Shown piece by piece: positions 310 through 29,969 of a stretch of 35,902 bases of DNA (positions are counted from its first letter, which is position 1; each line of letters starts with the position of its first letter). Origin of the DNA: a bacterium (GTDB lineage: Bacteria > Patescibacteriota > Minisyncoccia > UBA6257 > Colwellbacteraceae); contig JAZDFH010000014.1 of assembly GCA_043808035.1 (NCBI GenBank), positions 1-35,902 on the forward strand. Direction: 5' to 3'. The notes below the pieces were generated by a model. The model did no database searches. It worked only from the letters and a program-made list of their open reading frames with translations, and had not been told where the DNA came from. The translations under genes were made by a program, and so were the position numbers.

Positions 310-3300
310 ATGACAGACGAGTTTAAAAAGAGTACAAATGCTCAAAAGGAAGAAGAGATATTAACTTTTTGGCGGGATAATGAGATTTTTCAAAAAACAG
401 TATCAAAGAAATCTCCGAATGGTGATTTTGTTTTTTATGATGGTCCGCCGTTTGCAACAGGTCTACCACATTATGGACATTTATTGGCGGGTACGATAAA
501 GGACGCTATTCCTCGTTATCAAACAATGAGAGGGAAAGCTGTTCGGAGACAATGGGGATGGGATTGCCACGGATTACCGATAGAGAATCTTATCGAAAAA
601 GAATTGGGGCTTAAGAATAAACAGGACATTGAAATTTATGGTGTCGAAAAATTCAACGATGCGGCCAAGAGTAGCGTATTGCGATATGACAAAGAATGGA
701 AAGAGATCATTCCGCGTGTCGGGAGATTTGTCGATATGGACCATAGTTACAAGACGATGGATTGGACATATTCGGAATCAATTTGGTGGGCATTTAGTGA
801 ACTGTACAAGAAAGACTTTGCATATGAAGGATACAAATCAATGCATATTTGTCCGCGGTGTGAGACAACGTTGGCAAATTCGGAAGTAGCACAAGGGTAT
901 AAAGATATAAAAGACCTTTCCGTTATTGCAAAGTTTGAACTTGTTGATGAGCCGAATACGTTTGTGCTTGCTTGGACTACAACGCCATGGACGCTTCCGG
1001 GGAATGTAGCTTTGGCGGTTGGAAAAGATATTTCATATGTCAAAGTAAAGATCGATAAAGGGAAATATTCAGGTGAAACATATATCATTGCCGGCGAACG
1101 CATGACTGACATTTTACAAAAATCAGGCATGTTGGGAGATGCGATTGATCCACTGAAAGATAGTCCTGTTGAGTTGATTGCCGAAATTGTTCATTTGAAA
1201 GGATCGGATCTTATAGGGAAAGCATACAAGCCACTCTTTGATTATTATGCGAATAAAGAAGATTTGGAGAATCGTGAAAATGGATGGAAAATATATGCTG
1301 CTGATTTTGTAACGACAGAAGAAGGTACGGGGGTCGTTCATATTGCTCCGGCGTTTGGTGAGGACGATATGAATCTTGGCGCAGAGTATAAGTTACCGTT
1401 TGTACAACATGTAAAGATGAACGGTACGTTTACTGACGAGGTAATTCCTTTTGCCGGAATGCCGGTGAAGTCGAAAGATGCGCCGCAATCGACGGATATA
1501 GAGATCATCAAATATCTCGCCAAAGAAGGGAAACTTTTTTTGAAAGAAAAATATGAGCATTCATATCCTCATTGTTGGAGGTGTGATACTCCTCTTTTGA
1601 ATTATGCCGCATCGTCGTGGTTTATTAAGGTAACAGCTTTACGAGATAGGCTGGTTGAAAGTAATAAAAATATAACATGGGTCCCTGAAAATATTCGTGA
1701 CGGCCGTTTTGGAAAATGGTTGGAAGGAGCGCGAGATTGGGCCGTGTCCCGATCTCGATATTGGGGAGCTCCGTTGCCGGTGTGGAAATGTAATACCTGT
1801 GAAACTGTGGAAGTCTGTGGCTCTGTAGAGGAAGTTAAGAAAATGACAAAACTTTCAGGAAACAATTATTTCATCGTGCGACATGGCGAGGCAGAAAGTA
1901 ATGCGGGAAATTTTGTAAGCTCGAATGTCAGCAATAAACATCATCTTACCAAGAAAGGAGAATCGCAAGTTGTTGCGGTAGCCACAGAATTAAAGGAGAG
2001 AAAAATCACACGTATTTTTTCATCTGACTTTGTGCGAACGCGCGAAACGGCAGAGTGTATCGCTGAGACAATTGGTTTCGCAAAAGAAGATATTATTTTC
2101 GATACGCGATTGAGAGAAGTAAATACTGGAGATTTTGATGGAAAACCAGTTCAAGAATATTTCGATTTTTTCAATTCTATCGAGGAAAAGTTTGTAAAAC
2201 GTCCACCAAATGGTGAAACGGCGAGTGAGATTAAGCAACGAGTAGGGAATTTTTTATATGACATCGAGAAGCAGTACCATGATGAAAATATTCTTATTGT
2301 TTCGCATGAATATCCTTTATGGCTCCTTTGTGCAGCGGCTACAGGTGCTGATGTAGAACGTGCATCTGACATGAAGAGAGCACGAGTAGGGGAATTTATT
2401 TTTAACGCGGAGCTGCAGGAGCTTCCATTTATTCCATTACCGCACAATCGTGATTATGAGTTGGATGTCCATCGCCCATATATCGATGAAATAGTATTTT
2501 CGTGCCCTTGCGGAGGAGAAAAACATCGTATACCTGAAGTGTTTGATTGTTGGTTCGAATCAGGTTCAATGCCCTATGCACAGTTTCATTATCCATTCGA
2601 AAATAAAGAATTATTTGAACGGAATTTTCCGGCTGATTTTATTGCAGAAGGAGTTGACCAAACAAGAGGCTGGTTTTATACGTTATTGGTCTTGTCAGTC
2701 GGCCTTTTTGATAAAGCGGCATTTAAAAACGTCATTGTAAACGGTCTTATTCTTGCAGAGGATGGACAAAAAATGTCAAAGCGGCTTAAGAATTATCCTG
2801 ATCCGCTCTATCTTGTGAACCGATATGGCGCGGATGCATTGCGATACTATATGTTATCTTCTCCTGTCGTCCATGGAGAAGAATTGCGGTTTTCGGAAAA
2901 AGGCGTTGATGAAGTATTCAAGAAGGTTATATTGCGGCTCAATAATGTGTGTTCATTCTATGATATGTATGCAGATGTATTACATACTCTTGATATGCAT
3001 AAAGGAAGTACTCATGTATTGGATTTATGGATACAATCCAGACTTAATCAATTAATATCAGAAGTTGAGTCTGCAATGGATAAATATACGTTAGATCAAG
3101 CGGTAAAACCAATTGCATCATTTATTGATGGCCTTTCGACATGGTATCTTCGTCGATCAAGGGATCGATTTAAGTCTCATCTGACAGATTCTCAAACAGC
3201 AGGAGAACAAGTAGACGAAAATGAGGACAAACTATATGCGATTGCGACCACTCGTTATGTCCTTGAGACGCTTGCGAAGGTTATGGCGCCGTTTATGCCA

Positions 3301-4002
3301 TTTATTGCTGAAGAGGTTTATCAAAAAGTTACAGTGGGCATCTGTAAGGCTAAAAAGTATTGTGCCGCTACGGATACATCCACACAGTGCGTTTGTGGAT
3401 GTAAAGATAGTGTTCATCTGCAGGATTGGCCGACATGTGGGATGGTTGATATGAAAAAAATAACGGCAATGCAAGAAGCCCGTAGCGTTGTAGAGGCAAC
3501 ACTTGCAGCGCGGTCAAAAACGGGAATAAAAGTAAGGCAGCCACTAGAAAGCGTTTTCTACACCACAACGAGCAAGGAATCATTCCCTGTAGCATACGAA
3601 GCTATTATTGCCGATGAAATCAACGTAAAAAAAGTTATCTTTAAAGAAGAAATAGCAACAGATGATTTACAGGAAGATGATCGATACCAAATCGTAGAAG
3701 GGGACGGAGTGATTGTTGTATTACATACAGAGATAACAGATGAGTTAAGAAAGGAAGGAAATTTTCGTGATCTCGTCAGGTGTATTCAAGATATACGAAA
3801 AAAACAAAATTTGACTCCTCGAGATGCAATTGTTATACGAGTATTCTCGGATAACGAGGGCATTCAGTTTATTAAATCTTGTGAAACTGAACTGCAACAA
3901 GCGACAAATGCGGAAGAAATTATATTCGAAATAGCTGCACTCGAAAATGCTTATTCGATAACGATTGGGTCTATGACATTTTCTTTATTTGTTGCTGTAT
4001 GA
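310..4002 (+). CDS. ileS: Isoleucyl-tRNA synthetase (class I, eukaryote-like/type 2 layout) carrying an internal histidine-phosphatase domain
   Basis: HIGH motif PHYGHLLAG and KMSKS motif KMSKRLKNYP are present. IleRS blocks WTTTPWTLPGN, WRCDTPLLNYAASSWFIKV, DWAVSRSRYWGAPLPVW, DCWFESGSMPYAQ and EGVDQTRGWFYTL are all there. I moved the start from the track's 229 to ATG 310 (MTDEFKK..EEILTFW), where IleRS similarity begins. Confidence 0.96.
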   Translation: MTDEFKKSTNAQKEEEILTFWRDNEIFQKTVSKKSPNGDFVFYDGPPFATGLPHYGHLLAGTIKDAIPRYQTMRGKAVRRQWGWDCHGLPIENLIEKELGLKNKQDIEIYGVEKFNDAAKSSVLRYDKEWKEIIPRVGRFVDMDHSYKTMDWTYSESIWWAFSELYKKDFAYEGYKSMHICPRCETTLANSEVAQGYKDIKDLSVIAKFELVDEPNTFVLAWTTTPWTLPGNVALAVGKDISYVKVKIDKGKYSGETYIIAGERMTDILQKSGMLGDAIDPLKDSPVELIAEIVHLKGSDLIGKAYKPLFDYYANKEDLENRENGWKIYAADFVTTEEGTGVVHIAPAFGEDDMNLGAEYKLPFVQHVKMNGTFTDEVIPFAGMPVKSKDAPQSTDIEIIKYLAKEGKLFLKEKYEHSYPHCWRCDTPLLNYAASSWFIKVTALRDRLVESNKNITWVPENIRDGRFGKWLEGARDWAVSRSRYWGAPLPVWKCNTCETVEVCGSVEEVKKMTKLSGNNYFIVRHGEAESNAGNFVSSNVSNKHHLTKKGESQVVAVATELKERKITRIFSSDFVRTRETAECIAETIGFAKEDIIFDTRLREVNTGDFDGKPVQEYFDFFNSIEEKFVKRPPNGETASEIKQRVGNFLYDIEKQYHDENILIVSHEYPLWLLCAAATGADVERASDMKRARVGEFIFNAELQELPFIPLPHNRDYELDVHRPYIDEIVFSCPCGGEKHRIPEVFDCWFESGSMPYAQFHYPFENKELFERNFPADFIAEGVDQTRGWFYTLLVLSVGLFDKAAFKNVIVNGLILAEDGQKMSKRLKNYPDPLYLVNRYGADALRYYMLSSPVVHGEELRFSEKGVDEVFKKVILRLNNVCSFYDMYADVLHTLDMHKGSTHVLDLWIQSRLNQLISEVESAMDKYTLDQAVKPIASFIDGLSTWYLRRSRDRFKSHLTDSQTAGEQVDENEDKLYAIATTRYVLETLAKVMAPFMPFIAEEVYQKVTVGICKAKKYCAATDTSTQCVCGCKDSVHLQDWPTCGMVDMKKITAMQEARSVVEATLAARSKTGIKVRQPLESVFYTTTSKESFPVAYEAIIADEINVKKVIFKEEIATDDLQEDDRYQIVEGDGVIVVLHTEITDELRKEGNFRDLVRCIQDIRKKQNLTPRDAIVIRVFSDNEGIQFIKSCETELQQATNAEEIIFEIAALENAYSITIGSMTFSLFVAV
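1861..2436 (+). other. Histidine phosphatase (PGAM-like, His_Phos_1-type) domain embedded in the ileS reading frame
   Basis: The ordered motifs are FIVRHGEAESN, FSSDFVRTRETAE, LREVNTGDFDG, PPNGETASEIKQRV and ILIVSHEYP. The segment lies between the two halves of the IleRS zinc knuckle (CNTC ... CPCGG). Confidence 0.8.
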
Positions 4003-4020: not shown

Positions 4021-4065
4021 GTCAATAAAAAAACATCCTCTTCTAAAGGATGTTTTTTTATTGAC
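4021..4065. terminator. Bidirectional terminator hairpin shared by convergent ileS and trpS
   Basis: Perfect 19-bp inverted repeat gtcaataaaaaaacatcct / aggatgtttttttattgac with a 7-nt loop. The A7/T7 runs give a U-tract in both directions. Confidence 0.85.
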
Positions 4066-5045
4066 TATATGAGACCGATTTTTTTATGTATCTTTTGTAA
4101 TGTTACGTTTGCGTGTTTTTCAGCAGTTCGGGCATTTCGCGCAAGCGCTTTCATAACTGCTTCTTTGTTTTTTATAATTTCTTGCCGCTTTTCTCGAAAT
4201 GGTTTGAATTTTTCTATAACTATTTTTGTTAACGATTCTTTGAAAGGAGCATATCCCGCGTTTTTGAACTCACTTACTACCTTTTTTATTGGTACATCGG
4301 AGAGTTCTGAGTATATGAGAACAAGGTTTGACACACCAGGACGTTTTTCTGGATTGTACTCTATTGTTCGTTCAGAGTCTGTTACCGCTCGTTTAATTTT
4401 GTCTCGTATTACTTGTGGCGTGTCAGAAAGATATAGACATCCATTCGGCAATGACTTCGACATTTTTTTAAAAGGGTTATCAAGACTCATGACACGAGGA
4501 ATTTTTGTGTACAAGGCTTTTGGTTCTTTAAATGTTTTACCAAACGTATTGTTAAACGTACGCGCAATGTCACGTGCTAATTCAACATGTTGTCGTTGAT
4601 CTTCACCGACGGGAACATATACGGCGTTGTAAATAAGAATGTCTGCCGCCATAAGAACAGGATAACTAAAGAGTCCAAGGTTGGGGGTATGCCCTTCTTG
4701 GAGTTTTTCTTTGTACTCAATCATATTCGAGAGTCTTCCTGTTGATGTCACAGTGCCGAGTATCCATGAAAGGTTCGTATGTGCTTGTACGTGTGACTGA
4801 ATAAAGATAGTTGATTTCTTTATATCCAATCCCGCGGCAATGAAATCGATAATGACATTGAATATTTCTTTCCTTTTTTCTTTTGGTGAATAATTTTGTG
4901 TAATGGAATGGTAATCGGCAATAAAAAAATAACAATCGTATTTATTTGAGTCTTGCAACGCAACCGCATTTTCGACAGTACCGAGATAATTCCCAACGTG
5001 TAATTTTCCTGACGGCTTAATACCGGTAACAATATTTGGTTTCAT
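4065..5045 (-). CDS. trpS: Tryptophanyl-tRNA synthetase
   Basis: GIKPSGKLHVGNYLG (HIGH-type), KMSKS within FKKMSKSLP, and VPVGEDQRQHVELARDIA are present, and the size fits. Start set at ATG 5045 (MKPNIVTG...) rather than the track's 5081. Confidence 0.94.
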   Translation of the reverse strand: MKPNIVTGIKPSGKLHVGNYLGTVENAVALQDSNKYDCYFFIADYHSITQNYSPKEKRKEIFNVIIDFIAAGLDIKKSTIFIQSHVQAHTNLSWILGTVTSTGRLSNMIEYKEKLQEGHTPNLGLFSYPVLMAADILIYNAVYVPVGEDQRQHVELARDIARTFNNTFGKTFKEPKALYTKIPRVMSLDNPFKKMSKSLPNGCLYLSDTPQVIRDKIKRAVTDSERTIEYNPEKRPGVSNLVLIYSELSDVPIKKVVSEFKNAGYAPFKESLTKIVIEKFKPFREKRQEIIKNKEAVMKALARNARTAEKHANVTLQKIHKKIGLI

Positions 5046-5159
5046 AACAGTATTGTACAAAAAGTGGATAGAGGATGACAAATGAGAGAAAATAATTCAA
5101 AAATTAAAACGCAAAATTGTAACGAAAAAATAAAAACTGAAACTAAAAGACATGGTTGG

Positions 5160-5370: not shown

Positions 5371-7152
5371 TTACACTTCAATCACGACTGGTAAAACCAT
5401 TGGTCGACGATAAGTCTTATTATATAAGAATTGTCCGAGCTGGTCTCGCATAAGTGATTTTAAGTAATCGGCATCAAGTTGTTGTTTTCTCGGGATATGG
5501 TCTGCTATGGCGCGTATTTTTTGTCGGACTTGCTTCAACATATCTTGATTGTCTTTCAGGTAAATAAATCCTCTCGATATGATATCGGGATTTTTTAAAA
5601 CACGGCCGGTCTTTCTATCGAGTGTTACAATGATAACAATCATGCCTTCTTGAGCAAGCATTTTTCTGTCGCGTAAGACGATTTCTCCAACATCCCCGAC
5701 ACCAAGGCCGTCGACCATGACGTAGTGTGCAGGTACGGTTTCATCAGTAATGACAAAATGTTGTTTGGAGAGTACGGCAACGCTTCCGTTGTCGAGCATT
5801 CTGACATTTTCTTTTTTTACACCCGCTTCAATCGCGTTCTGACAATTAACTACACGCATGTAGTAGTGTCCATGTACGGGCATGAAGAAATCTGGTTTTA
5901 AAATACGAACGACGGTTTTGATATCTTCTTGTGTAGCATGTCCGCTTGCGTGAATGTCGATGACTTTCGTATGGTAGATGCTTGCTCCTTGTCGAGAGAT
6001 ATTGTCTTTTAATGACTGGACACTTCGTTCGTTTCCAGGGATAACCGAAGAAGAAAAGACGACACCATCTCCTGGTTTTAATTGGATATGCCTATGCTCG
6101 CCGCTCACGATACGCATCAATCCTGCGTTAGATTCTCCTTGTGCGCCGGTTGAGAGGATAAGAAGATTCTTATCTTTATATTTATGGATTTCTTCTATAG
6201 GAATGATTGTGTCTTCGCTTACTTTGATGTATCCCAAATTACGAGCGATCTGAATATTGTTTTTCATTGATCGGCCATTTATAGCGACCTTCCGTCCCAT
6301 TTTTTCTGCGATGTGCATAATTTCACCGATACGAGTGATCATGGAAGAGAACGTCGCAAGAATGATGCGACCTTCCATTTTTTTAAAAAGCATTGCCAAA
6401 TTTTTTTCTACCGTTTTTTCAGAAACGGATTGCCCTGCTTCTTCGGCATTTGTACTGTCTGCCATAAATGTGTGAACACCCATTTTCCCAATGCGTTCAA
6501 CGGTTTCTAGTCCAAGTGGTTTACCGTCTTCCGTGTAGTCTATACGAAAGTCTGCAAAGTAAACTAAATTGCCAATAGGAGTTTTAATAATAACTCCTGT
6601 AGTGTCCGGTACGGTATGAGATACTTCGAAAAATTCAAATTCAAAATATTTTCCAACTTTCGCCATATAGCCGTTTTGTACCGTGGTGATATTCAATTTA
6701 GGAACATTCACAAATTCTTCTTGTCGTTTTTCAACGATAGCTTTGGTAAGTTTTTGTGTATAGATGGGAGGATTACCTAGTCTGCTGGAAAGATATGGGA
6801 CTGCACCAATATGATCAAAGTGAGCGTGTGTAAGGACAATCGCTTTAATATTATCCTTTTTAGGTATAAGCGAGGTAATATTTGGGATGATGTAATCAAT
6901 ACCAGGTGTTTCTTCTTCGGGGAACTGAAAACCCATATCGATGATTACGATCTCATCTTTATATTCGATGTACATCATATTCCTGCCTATTTCTTCAAGT
7001 CCGCCAAGAGGAACAACTCGGATGCCGTTCAATGTTGATGAATTTGTTTGTTTCCGTTGTCGTGGATTACTGTCAGATTCGCTTTCAGGGCGGATCTTTG
7101 GATTACTTGGCACTACAAAATGTTGTTGTGCCGATTTTGGTTGTATTATCAT
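5371..7152 (-). CDS. rnj: Ribonuclease J (metallo-beta-lactamase / beta-CASP RNase)
   Basis: VLTHAHFDHIGAVP (HxHxDH), HASGHATQEDIK, PVHGHYYM and a C-terminal domain match the length and layout of RNase J. A roughly 45-aa polar N-terminal extension precedes the MBL core. Confidence 0.92.
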   Translation of the reverse strand: MIIQPKSAQQHFVVPSNPKIRPESESDSNPRQRKQTNSSTLNGIRVVPLGGLEEIGRNMMYIEYKDEIVIIDMGFQFPEEETPGIDYIIPNITSLIPKKDNIKAIVLTHAHFDHIGAVPYLSSRLGNPPIYTQKLTKAIVEKRQEEFVNVPKLNITTVQNGYMAKVGKYFEFEFFEVSHTVPDTTGVIIKTPIGNLVYFADFRIDYTEDGKPLGLETVERIGKMGVHTFMADSTNAEEAGQSVSEKTVEKNLAMLFKKMEGRIILATFSSMITRIGEIMHIAEKMGRKVAINGRSMKNNIQIARNLGYIKVSEDTIIPIEEIHKYKDKNLLILSTGAQGESNAGLMRIVSGEHRHIQLKPGDGVVFSSSVIPGNERSVQSLKDNISRQGASIYHTKVIDIHASGHATQEDIKTVVRILKPDFFMPVHGHYYMRVVNCQNAIEAGVKKENVRMLDNGSVAVLSKQHFVITDETVPAHYVMVDGLGVGDVGEIVLRDRKMLAQEGMIVIIVTLDRKTGRVLKNPDIISRGFIYLKDNQDMLKQVRQKIRAIADHIPRKQQLDADYLKSLMRDQLGQFLYNKTYRRPMVLPVVIEV

Positions 7153-7281
7153 GATTCGTTTATTTTTTATACGATAGTTATCGTATTTTTTATGTGTTGT
7201 ACATAAGCATTCATTATATTGTTCGACCGATGCTTGAGTACATTTTTTGTAAAAAGATGCTCGTCAGACGTGCACTTTTTG

Positions 7282-7363
7282 TGCCCGAGGGGAGACTCGA
7301 ACTCCCAAGGGTTACCCCACAGCGACCTGAACGCTGCGTGTCTACCAATTTCACCACCCGGGC
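7282..7363 (-). tRNA. tRNA-Leu (anticodon CAG), class II with a long variable arm; no encoded CCA
   Basis: The reverse complement folds as GCCCGGG TG GTG AAATTGGTAGA CAC G CAGCG TTCAGGT CGCTG TGGGGTAACCCTT GGGAG TTCGAGT CTCCC CTCGGGC A. It has a 7-bp acceptor stem (one G-U), a GTTCGAGTC T-loop and CAG in the anticodon loop. Confidence 0.93.
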
Positions 7364-9648: not shown

Positions 9649-9999
9649 TTATTTTGTCTTAAACAAAGCGTTTATCAAAATATGTGTTGCGCTTAAAAGG
9701 AGTGTAGCGTAAAAGAGCGGTAAAAGTCCAGAGATAGCTACTCCAGGGAAAAGATGGTCTAATAAGACCAAAAGGAGTGCGTTTATAAGTAAACTGGCAA
9801 TACCGAGGGTTAGAAATATCAAAGGGCTTAATACTATTTTTAGAAGTGGTTTCAAAATAATGACGATTAACGTGAACACACCTGTCATAATCAAGAAAGG
9901 TTCCCATGTCCCAAGAGGGACAGTGACGCCATGTATATAGGTACCTGCTATAAACAGCGCTATCGCATTTGCCAAGAATGCTGTGATAAGTTTTCTCAT
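9649..9999 (-). CDS. Small 4-TM membrane protein, phage-holin-4/DUF360 (YvlD-like) family
   Basis: MRKLITAFLANAIALFIAGTYI...LLINALLLVLLDHLFPG is four hydrophobic helices of about 116 aa. Its stop lies 1 nt from the secG start. Start moved to ATG 9999. Confidence 0.55.
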   Translation of the reverse strand: MRKLITAFLANAIALFIAGTYIHGVTVPLGTWEPFLIMTGVFTLIVIILKPLLKIVLSPLIFLTLGIASLLINALLLVLLDHLFPGVAISGLLPLFYATLLLSATHILINALFKTK

Positions 10000-10133
10000 A
10001 TAAGTAAGTATGGATAATGAATCAAGAATTAGGAAGAATGGATGGGGATTAAAGTAGAGCAACACATCATAAATATTGATGCATATTACTAATTTCTTTT
10101 TTTAGTTCCTCATTCTTGATTCATTATCCATAT

Positions 10134-11714
10134 TTATCGGAGCATCGAGAGAATATCTATCCCTGTCATACTCGTAGGCTGCGGGAGATGTAGTAAAGAT
10201 AAAATAGTTGGAGCAACGTCTGATATAACACCAACGTTTTCATGCTCAAGCATATCGGCCGTTTCGGAGCTTTTTTTATGTTTAAATGCGTTTCCGACGA
10301 TGTAAAAAGGGACAGGGTTCGGATCGTTTTTTATCTCGGGAGTGCCGGTATATGGATTCCTTACTCGTTCAGCGTTACCATGTCCGGAAGTAATGATAAG
10401 GATACTGTTTGTTGCAAGTACTGCGTCCATTAATTTTTGAATTTGTGCGTCGATGCAATGGATTGCTGAGAGTACCGCATTATAATCACCCGTTTGAGCC
10501 ATACTATCGGCGTTTGCATAATTAACAAGGATAAAATCATAAGCCAGTTCATGGATTGCTGTTAATGCTCTCGCAGTAATGCTTTCTGCCATCATTTCTG
10601 GAAAAGCTCGTTGATCAGGAGTGTCGCGGGAAGGGATAAGTATACGATATTCATTTTGGAACGGTTCTTGGCGAAGGCCATTGAAAAAAAAGGTCACATG
10701 GGGATATCGTTCTGTTTCGGCAATGCGGAGTTGTATTTTCCCGTTGTCGGCAAGCACTTTACCTAAGGGTTCCGTTATTGATTCGGGAGGAAATGCAACA
10801 GCAACGGGGAAAGATTTGCTGTATTCGGTAAAAGTTGCTATATACATATTCTCTTTTTTAGACAGTGGGGTTGCAGTGTCGGTATTTTCAACATGGGAGA
10901 AAGATGGGTCCAGGAAGAGTTGGACCAATTGTCGCATACTAGATTCACGAAAGTTAAAAAAAATAACACTATCATTACTCATAACGACACCATTCTTTAA
11001 AAGAAGTGTCGGTTTAATAAATTCGTTAGCCAAGTTTCTTTCATGAAATGTCTCAATGATCGATTGTGCTGTTATGGAGATATCGCCATATGGCAGTTCT
11101 GTCATTGCTTCGTATGTTTTTGTGGTTCTATCCCATCTACGATCGGTATCCATTGCAAAATAACTTCCGGAGATACTTGCTATTTGTACGGGACCGATAG
11201 ATTCTTGTAATTTTTTTAGCGGTCGGTATATGTCGTCAGGAACACTTTCTTTTTGATTAACGATAATATGAAGCATTATTTTTTCTCGAGGAAACGATAC
11301 TGTATCGGCATATTGAAAAAGAGCGATAAGGTGATCAATGGAAGAGTGTACTTGTTCTTCAGAAAGCAGACCGATCAGGTGTAAACAGCTTTGTTTCTCT
11401 TGTGTATGCGTGAAGGCGTTTATAAGTACTTGGTTGGAGAAAAATTTACCAGTTTTTATAGCAAGAGTAATTCGTGGAAGATGTTGGTATAAAATTTTAC
11501 CGGCACCAATCATGAGATGTCCAACCTGTGAATTACTTTCTTCTCCCCATGGGAGACCTACGGCAATACCTGATGCTTGCAGGCTCCCGATAGTGTAGGT
11601 GTGTTTGATGTATTCTACTGTTGGAGGGTTGGCGGTGAAGATTGGGTTTGAAGAATCTTTCCTCCCGATACCCCATCCATCCAGAATTGTCAGAATAACA
11701 GTTTGCTTGACCAT
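10134..11714 (-). CDS. gpmI: 2,3-bisphosphoglycerate-independent phosphoglycerate mutase
   Basis: VILTILDGWGIG, the catalytic-Ser block ESNSQVGHLMIGAG and the metal-site block ITSGHGNAE are present, at about 526 aa. Start moved to ATG 11714 (MVKQTVIL...). Confidence 0.92.
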   Translation of the reverse strand: MVKQTVILTILDGWGIGRKDSSNPIFTANPPTVEYIKHTYTIGSLQASGIAVGLPWGEESNSQVGHLMIGAGKILYQHLPRITLAIKTGKFFSNQVLINAFTHTQEKQSCLHLIGLLSEEQVHSSIDHLIALFQYADTVSFPREKIMLHIIVNQKESVPDDIYRPLKKLQESIGPVQIASISGSYFAMDTDRRWDRTTKTYEAMTELPYGDISITAQSIIETFHERNLANEFIKPTLLLKNGVVMSNDSVIFFNFRESSMRQLVQLFLDPSFSHVENTDTATPLSKKENMYIATFTEYSKSFPVAVAFPPESITEPLGKVLADNGKIQLRIAETERYPHVTFFFNGLRQEPFQNEYRILIPSRDTPDQRAFPEMMAESITARALTAIHELAYDFILVNYANADSMAQTGDYNAVLSAIHCIDAQIQKLMDAVLATNSILIITSGHGNAERVRNPYTGTPEIKNDPNPVPFYIVGNAFKHKKSSETADMLEHENVGVISDVAPTILSLLHLPQPTSMTGIDILSMLR

Positions 11715-11743
11715 AAGTATATTATACTTTAGAATCGCAAATA

Positions 11744-12529
11744 ATGCCTTATGTATATATACATCAGCATGCTCATGATATTGCGTTTGCCGTATTTCGT
11801 GTAGCAGCGTTAGTGAGACATCCAAAACTCAAAGGAGAGCTTGAAGATGCCGCGGTAGATCTTATTGCAAAAATGGATATCTATATAGTCCACGAAGGGA
11901 ATGAATGTAAGGGAAATAAACATTTTTATTATCATGAACGACTAAAATGGCTTGTTCGTCTTTCTGAATCGGTTGGCGAAATGAAGTCGATCAATGCAGC
12001 GGTTTTGTGTAGAGAGATTGATAATTTGGAAGCGGCGATAGTGGAAGCGGTTAATACTCTTAATAATATTGAAGAAGATGATATTGATTTGGACAATGAA
12101 GAATTTGCCTCTTTAGAGACGATTTCAGAAGAACGGCTTATCGAATCGCCACGGGATACTGAAGAATTTATATCATCAGTTGACACGGCGCAAGAAATAA
12201 ATATTGGAGGGATAGAGATGGAACAGCAGGAAGAGAAAGAAGAGAGGGTAATGATTGCCGAAAAAGAGGGCAATCATAGTGAAAAAAAGAATGTCCAGGT
12301 TACTTTACAACCGGAAGAACGGCAAGAAAAGGTCATGAAAACCATTCGGCAAATGCCGAATGGTTGCCGAATGAGGGATTTAATGATTATTTTCCCAAAA
12401 GTCAGTGAACGTACGCTTCGAAATGATCTTCAAACGCTTGTTAAACAGGGCGCGATAGAGCGTTTTGGTAGTCAAGGCCCTTATAGTTATTTTCGTGTTG
12501 TAACGAAAAGTGAGGTATTTGCGTTGTAA
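11744..12529 (+). CDS. Putative transcriptional regulator: helical N-domain, acidic linker, C-terminal DeoR-type winged HTH
   Basis: The C-terminus MRDLMIIFPKVSERTLRNDLQTLVKQGAIERFGSQGPYSYFRV looks like a DeoR/wHTH domain. The middle is E/D-rich low complexity. The gene is divergent from gpmI with only 29 bp between the start codons. Confidence 0.5.
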   Translation: MPYVYIHQHAHDIAFAVFRVAALVRHPKLKGELEDAAVDLIAKMDIYIVHEGNECKGNKHFYYHERLKWLVRLSESVGEMKSINAAVLCREIDNLEAAIVEAVNTLNNIEEDDIDLDNEEFASLETISEERLIESPRDTEEFISSVDTAQEINIGGIEMEQQEEKEERVMIAEKEGNHSEKKNVQVTLQPEERQEKVMKTIRQMPNGCRMRDLMIIFPKVSERTLRNDLQTLVKQGAIERFGSQGPYSYFRVVTKSEVFAL

Positions 12530-12862: not shown

Positions 12863-15800
12863 ATGACCACATTTAAAAGAAAAATTGTTGCAACAGCTTT
12901 ATCCGTCGCGACAATCGTAGCGATTGCAGGGACTGCAATGTTGCCTGTACAGGCACAGACCGCAGCAGAATTGCAATCACAAATTGCAGCGTTACTCGCA
13001 CAGATCCAGCAGTTGCAAACACAACTTGGAACATCAACAACAGGAACAACAACGACAACCAGCACAACATCAACAACCTATACCCATGACCTCACCATTG
13101 GTAGTAAGGGAGAAGATGTAACCGCGTTGCAGAGTTATCTTGTTGCACAGAATAAAGGTACGGCAGCCCAGGCGCTCGCCCAGGCATTTGCAGCAGGTAC
13201 CGCACAAGGCTACTTCGGTTCAATGACTAAAGCAGCTTTTGCAGAATATCAAGCAGCAGTCGGTATTTTACCTGCGGCAGGGTATTTTGGCCCTATTTCG
13301 CGAGCACACATGGCGACAGTGGCTTCAACAACTGCTGGAACCACGACAACAACTGGAACAACGACGACCACAACAACGACAACAACCACAGCGGCTGTTG
13401 AAGCGGGGTTGACGGTTTCGATTGCTTCAGATTCCCCGGCATCATCAACATTGGTTGCCAATCAATCAGTTGCGGATATTGCACACTTAACGTTCACCAA
13501 TGGTGACGAATCAGCAGTGACCGTATCTCAATTGGTTATCACAAAGACTGGTGTTTCGGGCGCTACCGCAATGGAGAACTTATATCTCTTTGACGGAGCA
13601 GTCCGATTGACCGATTCAGCGACATTCGTATCAACCACAAATAAAGCAACATTCGTAAGCTCGGGTGGAATCTTTACGGTTCCTGCAAAGAGCTCGAAGA
13701 CCATTGCTCTTAAGGCTGATATCTTGTCGAGTGCATCAGGTCAGACCGTTGGTATTCAGATCGCAACAGCGACTGATATAACAACGACAGCATCGGCAGT
13801 ATCGGGAACATACCCGGTTTCAGGCGCGATCCACACTATTGCAAGTGCAGGATCAAATCTTGCGACCGCGAATTTCACCGGTACGACCATTCCGTCGAGT
13901 GCAAACATCAATCCGGGAACGGATGTTGTTATGTTTCAACGGAATTTGAGCGTTTCAAACAGAAGTCTTAACTTGAGCCGTCTTGCATTCCGTAAGAGAG
14001 GTTCGGTTTCGGACAGCGATGTCAACAACTTCCGTTTATACGTTGGTTCAACGCTTGTTGACACGCAGGCGAGTGTTGGTTCAAACGGTTATATAACTTT
14101 TGCACCGGCAATTCCGTATGCTTTGACAACAGGAACACATGTCATCAAGGTTGTTGCTGACGTCATCAGCGGCTCATCGTACAGCGTATACCTCCAATTA
14201 AAAGAGGTATCGGATATCGAACTTGTTGACACAAGCTTTGGTGTATCAGTACGCCCAACGGTTGGTGGTTCATCTTTCAGCGCAATTACAGCTGGAACGA
14301 TGACTATTAATTCAGGTAGCGTCGTTGCATCAAAGGCAACAGATTCACCGACAGGAAACATCATCGATAATTCAACAGATGCTGTTCTTGGAAGATTCAC
14401 ATTGACTGCATACGGTGAAAAGGTAAAAATCGAAAGCTTAACGGCAGGATTTACCTATCCTGGAGCAGGAGCAGTGACTGGTCTCCAGAATGGACGCATT
14501 TTGGTTGATGGTGTCCAACTCGGAAACACGACCACATTGGCTGCGGCAGGTACACAGTACACTGGTGTAGCGTATATTATCCCGGGAACACCGGTAACGG
14601 TTGAAATTCGGGCTGATATCGAACCGTCTGCTGGTACTCTTACGACAGGGACGGACTCTGTTCAAGCTAGCTTGAGCATCGGTTCAGCGAATGGTGAAGG
14701 TATGACATCGTCAACCACCATCAATGTTCCGGTTGCGGCAAAGCTTGCAAGCCCACTTACTGTTCAGACAGGTGCGCTTAACTTGGCAGAGAATGTTGTC
14801 TACACAGACAAGACTATCGTTGTTCCGAAGGAAGCATATGAATTGGGCGAATTCACTCTGTTGAACAGCGGATATGAAGATATCGTCTTGGACACAATCC
14901 AGGTTGACTTCACCGCAGGTGGAGCAGGTGGAACGTTCACTTATGCTGATTTAACGAATGTCTATGTCGTTTACGGCACACAGGTAACGAATGTTAAATC
15001 AACAGTGAATGCAACAGGCAACACGTACTCGATTTCCTACACTCTTGGCGCAAGCGAAGGTATTGGAGTTGCGGTATTTGCTGATCTTGCATCGACAGTT
15101 ACAGCTCCTGACACTTTAACACCTGCAGTACTTGCTAGCGGTACCACAATGTCATCAGGCAGCGCGGTATACACAGGTGCGGGTGCAACAGGTACGATTA
15201 TGGGAGGTCAGACAATTACTGTCGGAGCAGGCAGTGTCGCATCAGCAGTTGATGCATCACGACCGAATGCGACGATTGTTGCTGACGCGACAACCGAAGT
15301 GCCAGTTGCGGCATACAAATTCACGACAGTTAACGACGATTACAAGATCGAAGCGCTTGTTGTGAGTTTTGGAGGAACAGGAGCATCATCGGTTATCCAG
15401 TATGCTATCTTGAAGGATAATGGCACAACAATCGCCATGGTTCCTGTCCAGAACGCTACTGCAACCTTTGACATCAGTGTTCCTATAGCGGCAAACGATT
15501 CTAAGGTCCTCACACTTGAGACAAATCTTGGAACGATTGGTATAAACGCTGGTACAACCGGTGCAAACATTCAAGCAACATTGGCGTTGGTACAGACCGA
15601 AACTTCGGCAGGTACACGAGCTAACGTCTCGGTTGCGTTGAGTGGACAAGCAATGTATGCATATAAAGCATATCCGACGATTACGAATCTAACGTTACCG
15701 TCATCATTGCTTTCAGCGGGAACACAAACCTTGGCACGCAACACCGTTTCAGCGACAGGAGGAACAGTTGGTTTCAGCAAGATCGTATATACGGTTTCGA

Positions 15801-16216
15801 AATCAGCAAATCCATACCTGACAAATGGAACAGTGAAGGTGTACAAAGATGGAGTTGAAATCCCAGGTACCGCTACCGTTACAGCAGCTCTCGAAGCGGC
15901 TGGAGCAGCAACCGGCACAATCAGCTTTGTTACAACAAACGAAGTTGAGATTTCAAGCTCATCAGTTATCGAAGTTAAAGCAACTATGGCTGGATCAGTT
16001 ACAACAGGAGATTATGTTAACGCATATATCGCATCAGGAGTTGCAACATATGCATCACCTGCAGCCTATGCAACTGTTGCAGCAACTGCTTCAAGCTTCG
16101 TATGGACCGACCAGGCAGGACAAGGTACGACGAGTCACTCGGCGACCACGACTGACTGGAACAACAATTACTTAGTAAAGAACATCCCAACCGATACTCA
16201 GACAATAAGTCGGTAA
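12863..16216 (+). CDS. Large secreted envelope protein: signal peptide, coiled coil, PG_binding_1 domain, poly-Thr linkers, then tandem degenerate beta-rich modules (S-layer-like candidate)
   Basis: The signal peptide reads MTTFKRKIVATALSVATIVAIAGTAMLPVQA|Q, followed by the heptad segment AAELQSQIAALLAQIQQLQTQLG. The PG-binding repeat is LTIGSKGEDVTALQSYLV...GYFGSMTKAAFAEYQAAVGILPAAGYFGPISRAHM. T-runs follow, then about 930 aa rich in T/S/A/G/V with recurring modules of about 110-120 aa. Confidence 0.85.
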   Translation: MTTFKRKIVATALSVATIVAIAGTAMLPVQAQTAAELQSQIAALLAQIQQLQTQLGTSTTGTTTTTSTTSTTYTHDLTIGSKGEDVTALQSYLVAQNKGTAAQALAQAFAAGTAQGYFGSMTKAAFAEYQAAVGILPAAGYFGPISRAHMATVASTTAGTTTTTGTTTTTTTTTTTAAVEAGLTVSIASDSPASSTLVANQSVADIAHLTFTNGDESAVTVSQLVITKTGVSGATAMENLYLFDGAVRLTDSATFVSTTNKATFVSSGGIFTVPAKSSKTIALKADILSSASGQTVGIQIATATDITTTASAVSGTYPVSGAIHTIASAGSNLATANFTGTTIPSSANINPGTDVVMFQRNLSVSNRSLNLSRLAFRKRGSVSDSDVNNFRLYVGSTLVDTQASVGSNGYITFAPAIPYALTTGTHVIKVVADVISGSSYSVYLQLKEVSDIELVDTSFGVSVRPTVGGSSFSAITAGTMTINSGSVVASKATDSPTGNIIDNSTDAVLGRFTLTAYGEKVKIESLTAGFTYPGAGAVTGLQNGRILVDGVQLGNTTTLAAAGTQYTGVAYIIPGTPVTVEIRADIEPSAGTLTTGTDSVQASLSIGSANGEGMTSSTTINVPVAAKLASPLTVQTGALNLAENVVYTDKTIVVPKEAYELGEFTLLNSGYEDIVLDTIQVDFTAGGAGGTFTYADLTNVYVVYGTQVTNVKSTVNATGNTYSISYTLGASEGIGVAVFADLASTVTAPDTLTPAVLASGTTMSSGSAVYTGAGATGTIMGGQTITVGAGSVASAVDASRPNATIVADATTEVPVAAYKFTTVNDDYKIEALVVSFGGTGASSVIQYAILKDNGTTIAMVPVQNATATFDISVPIAANDSKVLTLETNLGTIGINAGTTGANIQATLALVQTETSAGTRANVSVALSGQAMYAYKAYPTITNLTLPSSLLSAGTQTLARNTVSATGGTVGFSKIVYTVSKSANPYLTNGTVKVYKDGVEIPGTATVTAALEAAGAATGTISFVTTNEVEISSSSVIEVKATMAGSVTTGDYVNAYIASGVATYASPAAYATVAATASSFVWTDQAGQGTTSHSATTTDWNNNYLVKNIPTDTQTISR

Positions 16217-18098: not shown

Positions 18099-18244
18099 GC
18101 GCAATTTTTTTGACAAAAAAATGATTTTATATTTATCCCCATGGTTTGATTTCTTCAGAGTGGTATACTGTTTAATAACAATACATTAAGTAGAAAGCAG
18201 ACAGCACGTTGTCGAGTGTTGTAACTTCAAATTTTAAAAAAACA

Positions 18245-21200
18245 ATGATAAGTAAATTAAAAACATTTTCGATAAAGAACGTACTATTATTTGCGTTCAT
18301 ATTTTTGTTGGCGGCATGTGCTGTTTTTTTTCTTACACAGCAGTCAAATGCTGGGTTGAGTAGTGAGATTCAAGATCTTACAAATGGTAGTGGTATTAAG
18401 ATGAAACAGTCGAGTGATTTCCGTCCGATTTTCGCTATTACTTTTGGTAGTACCGATGCGGGCGAGACATTACAGGCTATTACAGTCGCTTTTATTGCAG
18501 GTAGTGGGACTCCAACATGGAATAATGGAGCAGCAACTTCGTCGGAGTTGCTTGACCTTGCGACAACCAGTGGTGGTGTATCTCTCTGGAAAGAAAGTGG
18601 TGCGACCCCTGGCTTTCATGCGGAGGAAGATACTCAAATAACTCTTGCTTCAACTCCACAATATAGTGGTGGAACATTTCAAATTACGCCGGCATCAGTG
18701 CCGACTTTAGCAGAGGATGATATATATTACGTTGTATTAAAGTCTGACACGACAGGTGTAACGGATGGGAATTCTTTTGGTGTTACGGTTCCAGTAAATG
18801 GTGTTGCAACAAATGGCGGACCAGTAACGTTACCTCAGGTCACAGCTGGTGTAATGATAGACACCGTTGTACCAGTAGTGAGTACTGGAGGACCTCAAAC
18901 AGGGGAACAGTCTGTCCCTGTTGAAGCATTAGTTGATAGGTCATTTAGTGAAGTACTTGATTTTACAACTGTTTCGACATCAACGGTTTCTCTAAAGACC
19001 AATGAGGGGAATACACAGGGAGGAACTCCAACAGGATCTAATCTATGTGGAGTAGTTTTTCTTGAGAATGGGAATCGTATCATTTGTAATCATATGAATG
19101 ATGCAACACCACTTAACCCTTCGATTTGGTATACTTTTACGATTACTACAGATGTAGCGGATAATGCGGGGAATCACCTCGCGCAAGCTTTTACGAGTTC
19201 ATTTCAGACATCAAGTTTCGGTGGAGGACAAAGCTTTAATCCACCGCCGTTTATTATGGGAACGACACCTCCTCCAGGAGGTCAGGTTCCATTGAATGGG
19301 AAAGTTGCAATTAATTTCAATAAACTGATGGTGACATCAGGTGATGGTTCGGTTGTTAGCACAAGTGTTGTGCAATTGTTCCTTACACAAAATTTTCAGG
19401 AGACAGGATCGAATCTATTAAATGTGACAACCGGGTGGAATTATCTGAGTGAATCTAATCAATTGAATATCCCGCTACCAACATTGACGTCAGGGTCACA
19501 GTATCGATTAATTGTTCGTGGTGATAACAACACTGATCCTGGTGATGGTAGTTGTGGTGGCACGGGCGAGCAGGCATGCGCGATGAGTACGGATGGAATG
19601 GCATTCCCTCAAAGCAAATTTATTGTTGACTTTACCGCAGGAGCTTCTGATGCAACAGGACCAACAGTAACGGGGAGTTTCCCAGACAATAACATTATCG
19701 GAGTAGATCGCGCGATCTATGATATCTCGGTGAGTTTCAATGAACCGGTTGCGCCGGCATCCGTATCAACAACATCAGTTAAATTATTTGCTGATAACGG
19801 AGATGCTTCTTTTGATGTTGGTACCGATACATTGGTAAGTACAGGAACAGTTGATCGTGATTTTGATGGTCGAACTGTTTTCTATTCACCAAATGCTTTG
19901 CTATCAGCGAGTACAAAATATTTTTTGGTAATCACATCAGGTTCAAACGGAATTACTGATTTGATTGGCAATCAGATGAGCGCAAATGTTGTCCGATCAT
20001 TTACCACGGGCGCTGACATTAATGGAGGAGCTTCAGATACGACGAATCCAAGTGTAATATTCGCAAACGCGGATAATTATGGTATTGCGATAACACTTTC
20101 AGAAGCGTTGAAGTTTAATACAACAGAGAATCAGACAAGCGGGTCATCAAGTGGCGCGAATGACGCAAACAATGCGAATTTATGGACGATAGAGACTTCC
20201 AGTGATGGAGGAACAACATGGAGAGCAATGCCTCTCACTGATCCGCAAACGGGCGCGATGCAAAACGGTAAATCAATTCGATATGAAGCCCGATCAAACA
20301 CGGTATTTATTGATGGACTTTCGATGCCACCGGGAGATGAATTTCGTGTAACAGCTTCGACAAGTATCCAAGACCTCGCAGGGAATGGGATGGAATCAAC
20401 GGGAAGGATTGCGAGAGGGCAGATACTAAGCAGTCAGGATACGGGAGGTATGCTTGGCGCGGGAGGAATGACGGGCAGCGAGCCTGATTTCTTTACAATG
20501 GGTATGCGTCCGGTAGAAGCGTTTCCAAAGACCGCTCTTGCTGGCGCAACGACACGATATAGAGTTGAATTTCCTGCTGATACGGCAATTCCTGCTTCAG
20601 GGAAGATTAGCTTACTTTATCCATCAGGATTTAGTTTTGGGGCAAGTTGTACAACATTACCCACAGATATATTCGAAAATAACGATATAAATGGACCTGC
20701 TCCAGGTATGGTAACGATAGCATCAGTTGCATGTAACTCTGTCTCTCGGTTGATAACAGTAACGCTTGGCAGCACTGCGACACAAGCAGGGGACATGATT
20801 CGTTTCGAAATTCAAGGGATAGTCAATTCAACTGTTCCTAAAGATTTCTCAACATCGGGATATACTGTTGATATAAAAACATATAACGCTTCAAATACGT
20901 TGTTGGAGACGATGACGACAATGCCATTCTTTGTTACAACGGCGGGTAGTTACTCCGCATCTGGTACGGTTTTTATTGATGATGGAGCAGGAGGAGGAAC
21001 CGCGAATAACGGACAAATGGATGGAACGGAAGCAGGTGTACAAAGCGTTAATGTCTGTATGGGAGGACCGTTTGGTTTTCAGTGCACAAACACGAATTCA
21101 AACGGTGTCTTTACTTTTTCTCAATTAAATAATGGATTCTATAACATCAATATACCGCCGCTTTCTTCAGGAAACGTGACGGGAGGACCATTTTTTAGAG

Positions 21201-29949: not shown

Positions 29950-29969
29950 TTTTTAATTATTTGAGAAGC

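Follow-up and report, generated by a model that had tools for sequence, protein, structure and literature searches.

Aminoacyl-tRNA synthetases (aaRSs) rank with the most thoroughly studied of all enzymes, and the hydrolytic domains that class Ia members are known to harbor as nested units are all editing domains. The CP1 editing domain, found in the connective-polypeptide (CP) region of the isoleucyl-, valyl- and leucyl-tRNA synthetases (IleRS, ValRS and LeuRS), is universal in these enzymes and cleaves mischarged aminoacyl esters. A precedent for an IleRS with an extra, non-editing catalytic domain is ileS_w_GNAT (NF040702), where that domain is an N-acetyltransferase. Here we analyze the ileS gene of a 35,902-nucleotide stretch of DNA from a member of the Colwellbacteraceae (Patescibacteriota; contig JAZDFH010000014.1, positions 1 to 35,902), referred to below as the window. 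The encoded IleRS contains a histidine phosphatase which, like the editing domain, is a hydrolytic domain nested in a connective-polypeptide region, and which differs from it in being lineage-specific, in its location in CP3, in its unrelated fold and in its predicted phosphoryl-transfer chemistry. CP3 is the name given to the zinc-knuckle subdomain of class Ia synthetases, which binds zinc in T. thermophilus IleRS (PMC7191050).

The IleRS2 enzymes (Priestia megaterium 8C8U/8C8V; T. thermophilus IleRS, 1ILE) are colinear with the window protein along the whole synthetase. Both have the HIGH and KMSKS signatures, the CP1 editing motifs, the CP-core and CP3 Cys4 knuckles, and the anticodon-binding and C-terminal domains. 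Unlike IleRS2, the window protein has a phosphatase of about 200 residues where the CP3 loop of 8c8v has 3, and a Cys-rich segment of about 25 residues. The phosphatase has the same fold, the same R-H...R...E...H set and a similar size as PspA (4IJ5/4IJ6), GpgP Rv2419c (4PZ9), PhoE/YhfR (1H2E/1EBB), CobC (6E4B/6NRU) and HFP (9MMH), but it is nested in a synthetase, belongs to a patescibacterial subfamily and is only 21–25% identical to these enzymes. A CobC/PhoE-like phosphatase is also joined to a nucleic-acid enzyme in the mycobacterial RNase H/acid phosphatase (Rv2228c type, NF005567), whose phosphatase half the insert matches with an E value of 4e-22. In that protein the fusion is end to end rather than nested, the partner and the phylum differ, and the score of 78.9 is below the cut-off of 326.

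The nested domain and its synthetase host

The features of ileS are listed below. All are on the forward (+) strand, and conservation was counted in an alignment of 62 fused IleRS sequences, which consisted of the window protein and 61 full-length homologues.

310–4002 (+): ileS frame, starting at ATG 310 (alternative start GTG 229), 1230 amino acids from ATG 310, no interruption in the list of open reading frames (ORFs)
469–480 (+): HIGH signature HYGH of the class I catalytic site, read from the translation; HxGH or GxHH is kept in the alignment
910–1569 (+): CP1 editing domain, residues ~201–420, with TTTPWT and GTGVVHIAP intact; aligns to the editing-domain structures 1wk8/1wny
1765–1842 (+): first half of CP3, a beta-hairpin with C494-x2-C497 (CNTC, nt 1789–1800) and the short helix SVEEVKK; the 8c8v alignment extends to residue 511
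1843–2442 (+): nested histidine phosphatase, residues 512–711, Pfam core 521–689 (nt 1870–2376), from PF00300, AlphaFold2 (AF2) and Foldseek
1879–1887 (+): RHG motif, with R524, the nucleophile H525 and G526, 62/62
2035–2037 (+): R576, second phosphate-binding Arg (VRTRET), 62/62
2116–2118 (+): E603, presumed general acid/base (LREVNTGDFDG), E in 61/62 and D in 1/62
2305–2307 (+): H666, distal catalytic His (IVSHE), 62/62
2443–2544 (+): second half of CP3, HNRDYELDVHRPYIDEIVFSCPCGGEKHRIPEVF, with C732-x-C734 (CPC, nt 2503–2511); the 8c8v alignment restarts at residue 712
2545–2784 (+): second half of the Rossmann fold, from DCWFESG (2545–2565) to the KMSKR loop (2770–2784), read from the translation
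3022–3993 (+): Anticodon_1 (residues 905–1081) and the IleRS2-type C-terminal DUF5915 (residues 1121–1228), from Pfam

The product of ileS scored 857.4 bits with the NCBIfam isoleucine–tRNA ligase equivalog TIGR00392 (cut-off 621.4). In Pfam, tRNA-synt_1 was matched in two pieces flanking His_Phos_1, and Anticodon_1 and DUF5915 were matched as well. The nearest solved structures were IleRS2 8c8v/8c8u from P. megaterium (E 1e-220), and the type-1 enzymes 8c9e/1ffy matched more weakly (E 1e-78 to 1e-74). With IleRS2 as the best match and DUF5915 at the C-terminus replacing the type-1 zinc-binding domain, the protein is classified as a type-2 (eukaryote-like) IleRS. KMSK and the D, W and S of DxWFxSG were present in 62 of the 62 sequences, and the key positions of the CP1 editing motifs in 59 to 62 of them. 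The flanking synthetase was thus as intact as the original prediction, made by a model from the sequence of the window, had stated: HYGH, KMSKR and the editing motifs are all there. From these intact motifs alone, we infer that the IleRS half charges tRNA-Ile as usual. Models of other unusual IleRS enzymes scored below their cut-offs, both ileS_w_GNAT (307.3 bits against 1999, with no GNAT Pfam match in the window IleRS) and the mupirocin-resistance enzymes MupA/MupB (NF000257/NF000258, 736.7 and 763.9 against 1900).

Two further observations concern the synthetase portion. The HIGH signature (window residues 52–59, nt 463–486) reads HYGH in the window and GxHH (e.g., PGIHHLE) in about 16 of the 62 fused enzymes; GxHH in place of HxGH is the altered motif that has been reported for hyper-mupirocin-resistant IleRS2. 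The Cys-rich segment mentioned above (KYCAATDTSTQCVCGCKD, nt 3334–3408) lies in the anticodon-binding region opposite a gap in IleRS2 8c8u, and it may be an extra metal site.

The limits of the insert were taken from comparison with uninterrupted enzymes. Query residues 9–511 aligned to residues 9–476 of the 8c8v chain and query residues 712–1008 to residues 480–767, leaving about 200 residues opposite 3. When the comparison was made with the unfused patescibacterial IleRS of locus L082, about 207 window residues stood opposite about 12. The insert sits between C494-x2-C497 and C732-x-C734, in the zinc-knuckle loop of CP3. A foreign segment between the two halves of the knuckle had been proposed at nt 1861–2436 (residues 518–709, NNYFIVRHGEAESN...ELQELPFIP); its placement within the knuckle stands, and its bounds have to be widened to 1843–2442. 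The single 1230-codon frame was confirmed, and translation returned every motif quoted in the original prediction at its expected position.

The profile His_Phos_1 was matched over residues 521–689 with an E value of 3.7e-33 for the whole protein and of 8.2e-35 (120.7 bits, cut-off 21.7) for the insert alone. The catalytic residues occur in canonical order and line up with the catalytic positions of PspA 4ij5. The RHG and the distal His were also kept on alignment, and the domain is complete, as had been claimed. Elsewhere in the domain, N531 was found in 61 of the 62 sequences and G635/E636 in 60–61 of them. The linkers are short and are also kept (N518 in 62/62, F707 in 60/62, P711 in 60/62). 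AF2 was run on residues 486–745 with 33 homologues and produced a compact alpha/beta domain with a predicted local distance difference test (pLDDT) of 94.2 and a predicted template-modeling score (pTM) of 0.89. The CP3 hairpins were supplied by the N-terminal (strands E6–9 and E15–17, helix H21–27) and C-terminal (strands E244–246 and E252–255) flanks. The model thus predicts a phosphatase lobe on CP3 that is compact and separate, in agreement with the extra lobe originally envisaged. Taken together, these data make the anatomy of the nested domain and its catalytic competence very probable.

The best Foldseek matches of the model were PspA, GpgP and PhoE, with a probability of 1.00 and TM-scores of 0.73–0.79. 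Relatives of solved structure, identified by sequence and fold, are PspA, the glucosyl-3-phosphoglycerate phosphatase Rv2419c, PhoE/YhfR, a riboflavin-pathway phosphatase, TIGAR and CobC. All of them are small-molecule phosphomonoesterases, at 21–25% identity, target-normalized TM-scores of 0.72–0.79 and Foldseek E values of 4e-14 to 1e-11. The domain is acidic to neutral: its median pI is 6.05, and the copy in the window carries a net charge of -8. The subfamily is marked by N-x-Y ahead of the RHG and by a C-terminal strand GE(L/F)R(K/E)L. None of the models of characterized families reached its cut-off. Alpha-ribazole phosphatase CobC (TIGR03162) gave 82.4–87.7 bits against 162.9, and phosphoserine phosphatase PspA (NF045917) gave 65.6–69.3 against 350, although PspA was the best match in the Protein Data Bank by sequence and fold. 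SixA (TIGR00249) gave 33.9–39 against 74.5 and aligned only over profile positions 3–68 of 154. The models of cofactor-dependent phosphoglycerate mutase (dPGM; NF038349, TIGR01258, PRK03482) also failed: dPGM_arch scored 79.5–83.7 against 225, pgm_1 19.1 against 81.7 and GpmB 71.7–77 against 261. On these scores the guest is assigned to branch 1 of His_Phos_1 as a member of phosphatase type (PhoE/PspA/GpgP/CobC-like) that falls within no characterized equivalog family. The label "PGAM-type" given to it earlier is correct for the superfamily fold and not for the mutase type, since the dPGM models fail and phosphatases are the nearest relatives.

The fused gene in Patescibacteria

A protein search with residues 440–790 of the window IleRS recovered dozens of proteins in which PF00133 and PF00300 occur together, at 36–58% identity, nearly all of them from metagenome-assembled genomes of Patescibacteria/Parcubacteria type. 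Their database names are "class I tRNA ligase family protein" or "histidine phosphatase family protein, partial". Public sequences of this kind, under generic names, date back at least to the GW2011 Wolfebacteria genome (L025, LCHW01), and the fused genes are under-annotated. The exact protein of the window had no entry in the assembly index. In the searchable literature, no description of a phosphatase within any aaRS was found. The statement that the protein fits no described architecture is therefore correct for that literature; the sequence databases do hold the architecture, under generic names.

To follow its distribution, one genome per GTDB species was scanned with a four-sequence alignment as the query. 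The scan gave more than 599 pattern matches, of which 517 were confirmed by tblastn. The architecture was read in 80 retained loci out of these 517, and all 80 span both IleRS/phosphatase junctions, with 40–56% identity. They come from Wolfe-, Campbell-, Taylor-, Lloyd-, Zambryski-, Nomura- and Sungbacteria and from Minisyncoccia. Thus, other IleRS sequences do carry the insertion that was first noticed in the window, and the number of patescibacterial GTDB species that have it is 80 or more. A second, unrelated catalytic domain has been kept inside IleRS across a major and mostly uncultured bacterial radiation, and the insertion is a lineage marker for the Paceibacteria-type Candidate Phyla Radiation.

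In 61 of the 80 loci the frame is uninterrupted over at least 1100 amino acids and has the same architecture, in independent assemblies of different species. The GC content is even across the junctions (0.39–0.44). One locus on a 61-kb ENA contig (L001, 3745–7243) has the fused ileS in three consecutive ORFs of 431, 526 and 205 amino acids, a split that is probably due to frameshift errors and does not represent a split enzyme. In three fragments (P0021, P0026 and P0029) the cap region is affected by deletions.

Averaged over the alignment, identity to the window was the same in the insert (0.45) as in the anticodon-binding domain (0.45), lower in the C-terminal domain (0.34) and higher in the Rossmann halves (about 0.60). 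Strict purifying selection acts on the catalytic set (R524, H525, R576, E603 and H666). Because this set is strictly kept while the rest of the insert diverges at the rate of the less conserved IleRS domains, the phosphatase is likely to be a working enzyme. Its retention does not follow the zinc site. All four CP3 cysteines were present in 43 of the 62 sequences and all were missing in 18, and the phosphatase is there regardless, which indicates that the insert is independent of the zinc site.

Other hosts, free-standing copies and gene neighborhoods

With the 192-amino acid insert as the query, an exhaustive search recovered 11,991 cluster representatives with an E value of 1e-3 or lower; 1199 of them were at or below 1e-10 and 43 at or below 1e-30. 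The hosts were classified for the best 150 of the 11,991. The majority of these 150 are IleRS with a single CP3 phosphatase, and every long host among them is an IleRS, a ValRS, an ArgRS, a TsaC (threonylcarbamoyl-AMP synthase) or an AlkB-like protein. Two groups of matches had to be reinterpreted. Those of about 950 amino acids with the insert at about residue 270, which could be taken for editing-less IleRS, are N-terminally truncated fragments that start within the editing domain. Several of the short matches of about 200 amino acids (e.g., P0121) are pieces of fused genes and not free-standing proteins.

Insertion is not restricted to one copy or to one site. A full-length IleRS of 1419 amino acids (P0198) has an intact, uninterrupted CP3 and two phosphatases elsewhere, one after DCWFESGSMPYA and the other at the start of the anticodon-binding domain. 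Two other IleRS proteins (P0223 and P0251) have two copies each. An IleRS fragment (P0252) appears to combine, in frame, the CP3 phosphatase, a nested GNAT domain after HFPFEN and, in the editing region, a transposase domain of the REP-associated tyrosine type (NF047646, 81.3 bits against 80) with the HUH motif PDHVHLLL. At least 25 distinct ValRS proteins carry the phosphatase in CP3, in Gracili-, Moran-, Doudna- and Colwellbacteria and others (P0260–P0316). In these enzymes the RHG lies about 35 residues past WCISRQ and DxWFSS about 230 residues past it; the site is CP3 and is homologous to that in IleRS. Two ValRS proteins (P0122 and P0266) have an additional phosphatase ahead of WCISRQ, and the first of them has four copies in all. 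CP3 is thus a permissive site for the insertion of a whole enzyme, a property that is useful in engineering.

Outside IleRS and ValRS, the phosphatase was found at the C-terminus of an ArgRS (P0205), at the C-terminus of TsaC (P0237; TIGR00057, 146.8 bits against 123.2), a fusion seen in 4 clusters, and together with a weak AlkB-like match (P0246). About 25 matches are genuine free-standing proteins of about 190 amino acids (MKLNNKYFLLRHG ... GELRKLN-stop) with no added RNA-binding module. The occurrence of the phosphatase in CP3 of ValRS, at other IleRS sites, in ArgRS, in TsaC and as a free-standing protein encoded upstream of ileS is new here.

The catalytic R/H/R/H quartet is invariant in the 62 IleRS-CP3, 25 free-standing and 28 ValRS-nested domains. 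Tandem copies within one protein keep the catalytic residues in every case and are only 26–36% identical to each other, so they are old and not recent duplications. IleRS-CP3 and free-standing domains share a mean identity of 0.36 (maximum 0.49), and the ValRS-nested domains share a mean of 0.27 with either group. These values suggest separate capture events.

Of five independent contexts with a free-standing phosphatase gene (hp), four have it immediately upstream of an unfused ileS, the two genes being 2–10 bp apart or overlapping:

L082: argS ... hp-ileS (955 aa)-...-recO
L083: argS-hp-ileS
L085: hp-ileS
L086/L087: argS-hp-ileS

The 195-amino acid phosphatase of L082 aligns over its full length to window residues 518–705 with 39% identity. 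By this alignment, the nested domain is the whole free-standing protein of about 190 amino acids minus a few N-terminal residues. Since neighboring genes in some genomes encode a single protein in others, nested rather than end-joined, the arrangement is a Rosetta-stone (gene-fusion) pattern. Along with the various nested and fused forms, it speaks for a functional link of the phosphatase subfamily to tRNA-charging enzymes. The genetic tie to tRNA-charging or adenylate-forming enzymes is repeated and independent. Fused loci show the synteny argS-ileS::hp-recO-x-glyS in about 43 of 61 cases; their neighborhoods contained neither a kinase nor any other informative partner and consist of housekeeping synteny only. 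The window does not have the argS-ileS-recO-glyS order. There, ileS begins about 300 nt from the edge, and its upstream neighbor lies outside the window.

Candidate substrates and remaining genes of the window

We favor a bifunctional polypeptide in which the IleRS part would carry out charging and the phosphatase lobe would remove a terminal phosphate through a phospho-H525 intermediate, with R524, R576 and H666 binding the phosphate and E603 donating a proton to the leaving group. Catalysis through phosphohistidine, with Arg/His phosphate binding and an acid/base Glu, is well established for the superfamily. As the substrate, a phosphorylated compound that is small and soluble seems more likely than tRNA or a protein, a reading to which we give a probability of about 0.55. 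It is suggested by the close relatives, all of them small-molecule phosphatases; by the acidic character of the domain; by the bare free-standing protein, which is taken to work in trans; by insertion sites that are too varied for a geometry-dependent reaction; and by the multiple, deeply divergent copies, which resemble a set of metabolite phosphatases. Selection would then favor co-expression or co-localization with class Ia synthetases and not an exact geometry. In a tentative version of this proposal, the domain clears a phosphate-bearing by-product, of AMP or pyrophosphate (PPi) type, of enzymes that convert ATP to AMP and PPi. IleRS, ValRS, ArgRS and TsaC all form an adenylate and PPi from ATP, and local clearance is attractive because all four release PPi and AMP. 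In another, equally tentative version, a housekeeping metabolite phosphatase simply rides on translation genes. Among the roles suggested in the original prediction, hydrolysis of Ap4A is chemically the least likely, since Ap4A is not a phosphomonoester.

Several points weigh against a small-molecule substrate. The hosts fit the description "tRNA-handling enzymes" equally well. To our knowledge, no branch 1 histidine phosphatase hydrolyzes PPi, and dephosphorylation of AMP seems wasteful in organisms that salvage nucleotides. One free-standing homologue (L084) is not beside an aaRS gene; its neighbors are MazG-like, SLFN-type helicase and DUF3800 genes, in what may be a defense or mobile region. 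Patescibacterial TsaC is also fused to 2H/CPDase-LigT, TruB, MGMT-like, AAG, GNAT and Nudix domains, and this variety of partners indicates either a theme of RNA repair and modification, which would favor a tRNA substrate, or a general promiscuity of fusion. If these genomes fuse genes promiscuously, a fusion is not always strong evidence for a functional link to aminoacylation. In the TsaC proteins surveyed (P0383–P0495) the commonest partner was the MGMT-like DNA_binding_1, and the further partners were TruB, 2H/CPDase-LigT, AAG glycosylase, GNAT, Nudix and His_Phos.

The main rival to the small-molecule reading is the de-blocking of tRNA 3′-ends, in which the lobe would remove a 3′- or 2′-phosphate, or a pyrophosphate added by a toxSAS enzyme, from the CCA end, and so make the tRNA chargeable by the attached synthetase, as a built-in repair or immunity function. 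The toxSAS toxins pyrophosphorylate tRNA CCA ends and so block aminoacylation (bioRxiv 10.1101/2021.04.30.441581; PMC11559606). Most hosts of the domain handle tRNA (it is bound by IleRS, ValRS and ArgRS, and the t6A precursor is the product of TsaC), and IleRS and ValRS carry the insertion at homologous positions in CP3. In class I synthetases, CP-derived modules are near the acceptor arm, and the 2H/LigT domains fused to TsaC would make phosphomonoester ends that such a phosphatase could clear. On the other hand, we know of no histidine phosphatase that acts on RNA ends, the nearest relatives are metabolite phosphatases and the domain is acidic. The free-standing form lacks an RNA-binding module, some sites are remote from the acceptor end (in P0198, one copy is placed where the anticodon-binding domain starts), and TsaC itself does not bind tRNA. 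We consider this substrate unlikely, while ranking it ahead of the remaining rivals. A protein substrate is far less probable. In this scenario the phosphatase would undo an inhibitory phosphorylation of the synthetase or of a translation factor, introduced for example by HipA/HipT-like kinases. The superfamily includes the protein phosphatases SixA, PGAM5 and Sts-1, Hip kinases phosphorylate the aaRSs GltX and TrpS, and there is a weak, partial match to SixA (34–39 bits against 74.5). That match, however, is below the cut-off and confined to the N-terminal third, the structural neighbors are metabolite phosphatases, and no kinase is conserved in the argS-ileS-recO-...-glyS neighborhood.

Three other explanations were considered. 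Non-catalytic appended domains are common in aaRSs, and the cap-region deletions of the three fragments could be read as signs of a catalytically silent module, its fold kept as a structural or tRNA-binding appendage. Such a module is hardly to be reconciled with R524, H525, R576 and H666 in 62/62 sequences and N531 and E603 in 61/62 at about 45% overall identity to the window's domain, nor with the catalytic residues of ValRS-nested and free-standing copies or a domain that is not basic. The idea that the organism's glycolytic dPGM was fused to IleRS draws on a generic likeness to dPGM models (dPGM_arch 79.5 and GpmB 71.7 bits). It is highly improbable: every mutase model is far under its cut-off, the post-Glu motif EVNTGDFDG is phosphatase-like and unlike the mutase ERHYG, and the window has its own cofactor-independent enzyme (iPGM, 10134–11825, reverse strand, iPGM_N and Metalloenzyme), so the embedded domain is not needed as a glycolytic mutase. 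The unusual architecture, and a C-terminal junction that reads ...PHN|R, might also be attributed to a chimeric assembly or to a mobile or spliced (intein-like) element missing from the mature enzyme. A chimera was ruled out by the 61 uninterrupted frames from independent assemblies and the uniform composition. As for splicing, no Hint/intein Pfam match was found in the protein, the insert begins with MTKLSG, PHN is followed by Arg and not by Cys, Ser or Thr, and the linker residues are kept. This explanation is practically negligible.

The small-molecule and tRNA-end readings share one more general proposal, which we regard as speculative: the phosphatase could be an unrecognized accessory activity of class Ia aminoacylation in Patescibacteria, either stripping blocked tRNA 3′-ends or destroying an adenylation product locally. 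Either version would explain why it was repeatedly wired into IleRS, ValRS, ArgRS and TsaC or placed upstream of ileS. The pattern predicts a phosphate-removing step linked to tRNA charging, the alternative being a housekeeping phosphatase without a mechanistic link. If the former is true, synthetases would embed a second kind of hydrolase beside the editing domains, and in its tRNA version the step would protect against tRNA-end-modifying toxins.

The other genes of the window are listed below. No Pfam match was found for the ORF at 12863–16216 (1117 amino acids). Both giant ORFs probably encode cell-surface proteins.

4065–5081 (-): TrpRS, flanking ileS
5371–7152 (-): RNase J, near ileS
7281–7363 (-): tRNA-Leu(CAG), near ileS
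9649–10065 (-): holin-family (PF04020) membrane protein, near ileS
10134–11825 (-): iPGM, from Pfam
18209–24805 (+): giant ORF of 2198 amino acids with matches to Big_5, CarboxypepD_reg, fn3 and PG_binding_1
29961–35534 (+): giant ORF of 1857 amino acids with matches to lamin-tail domains

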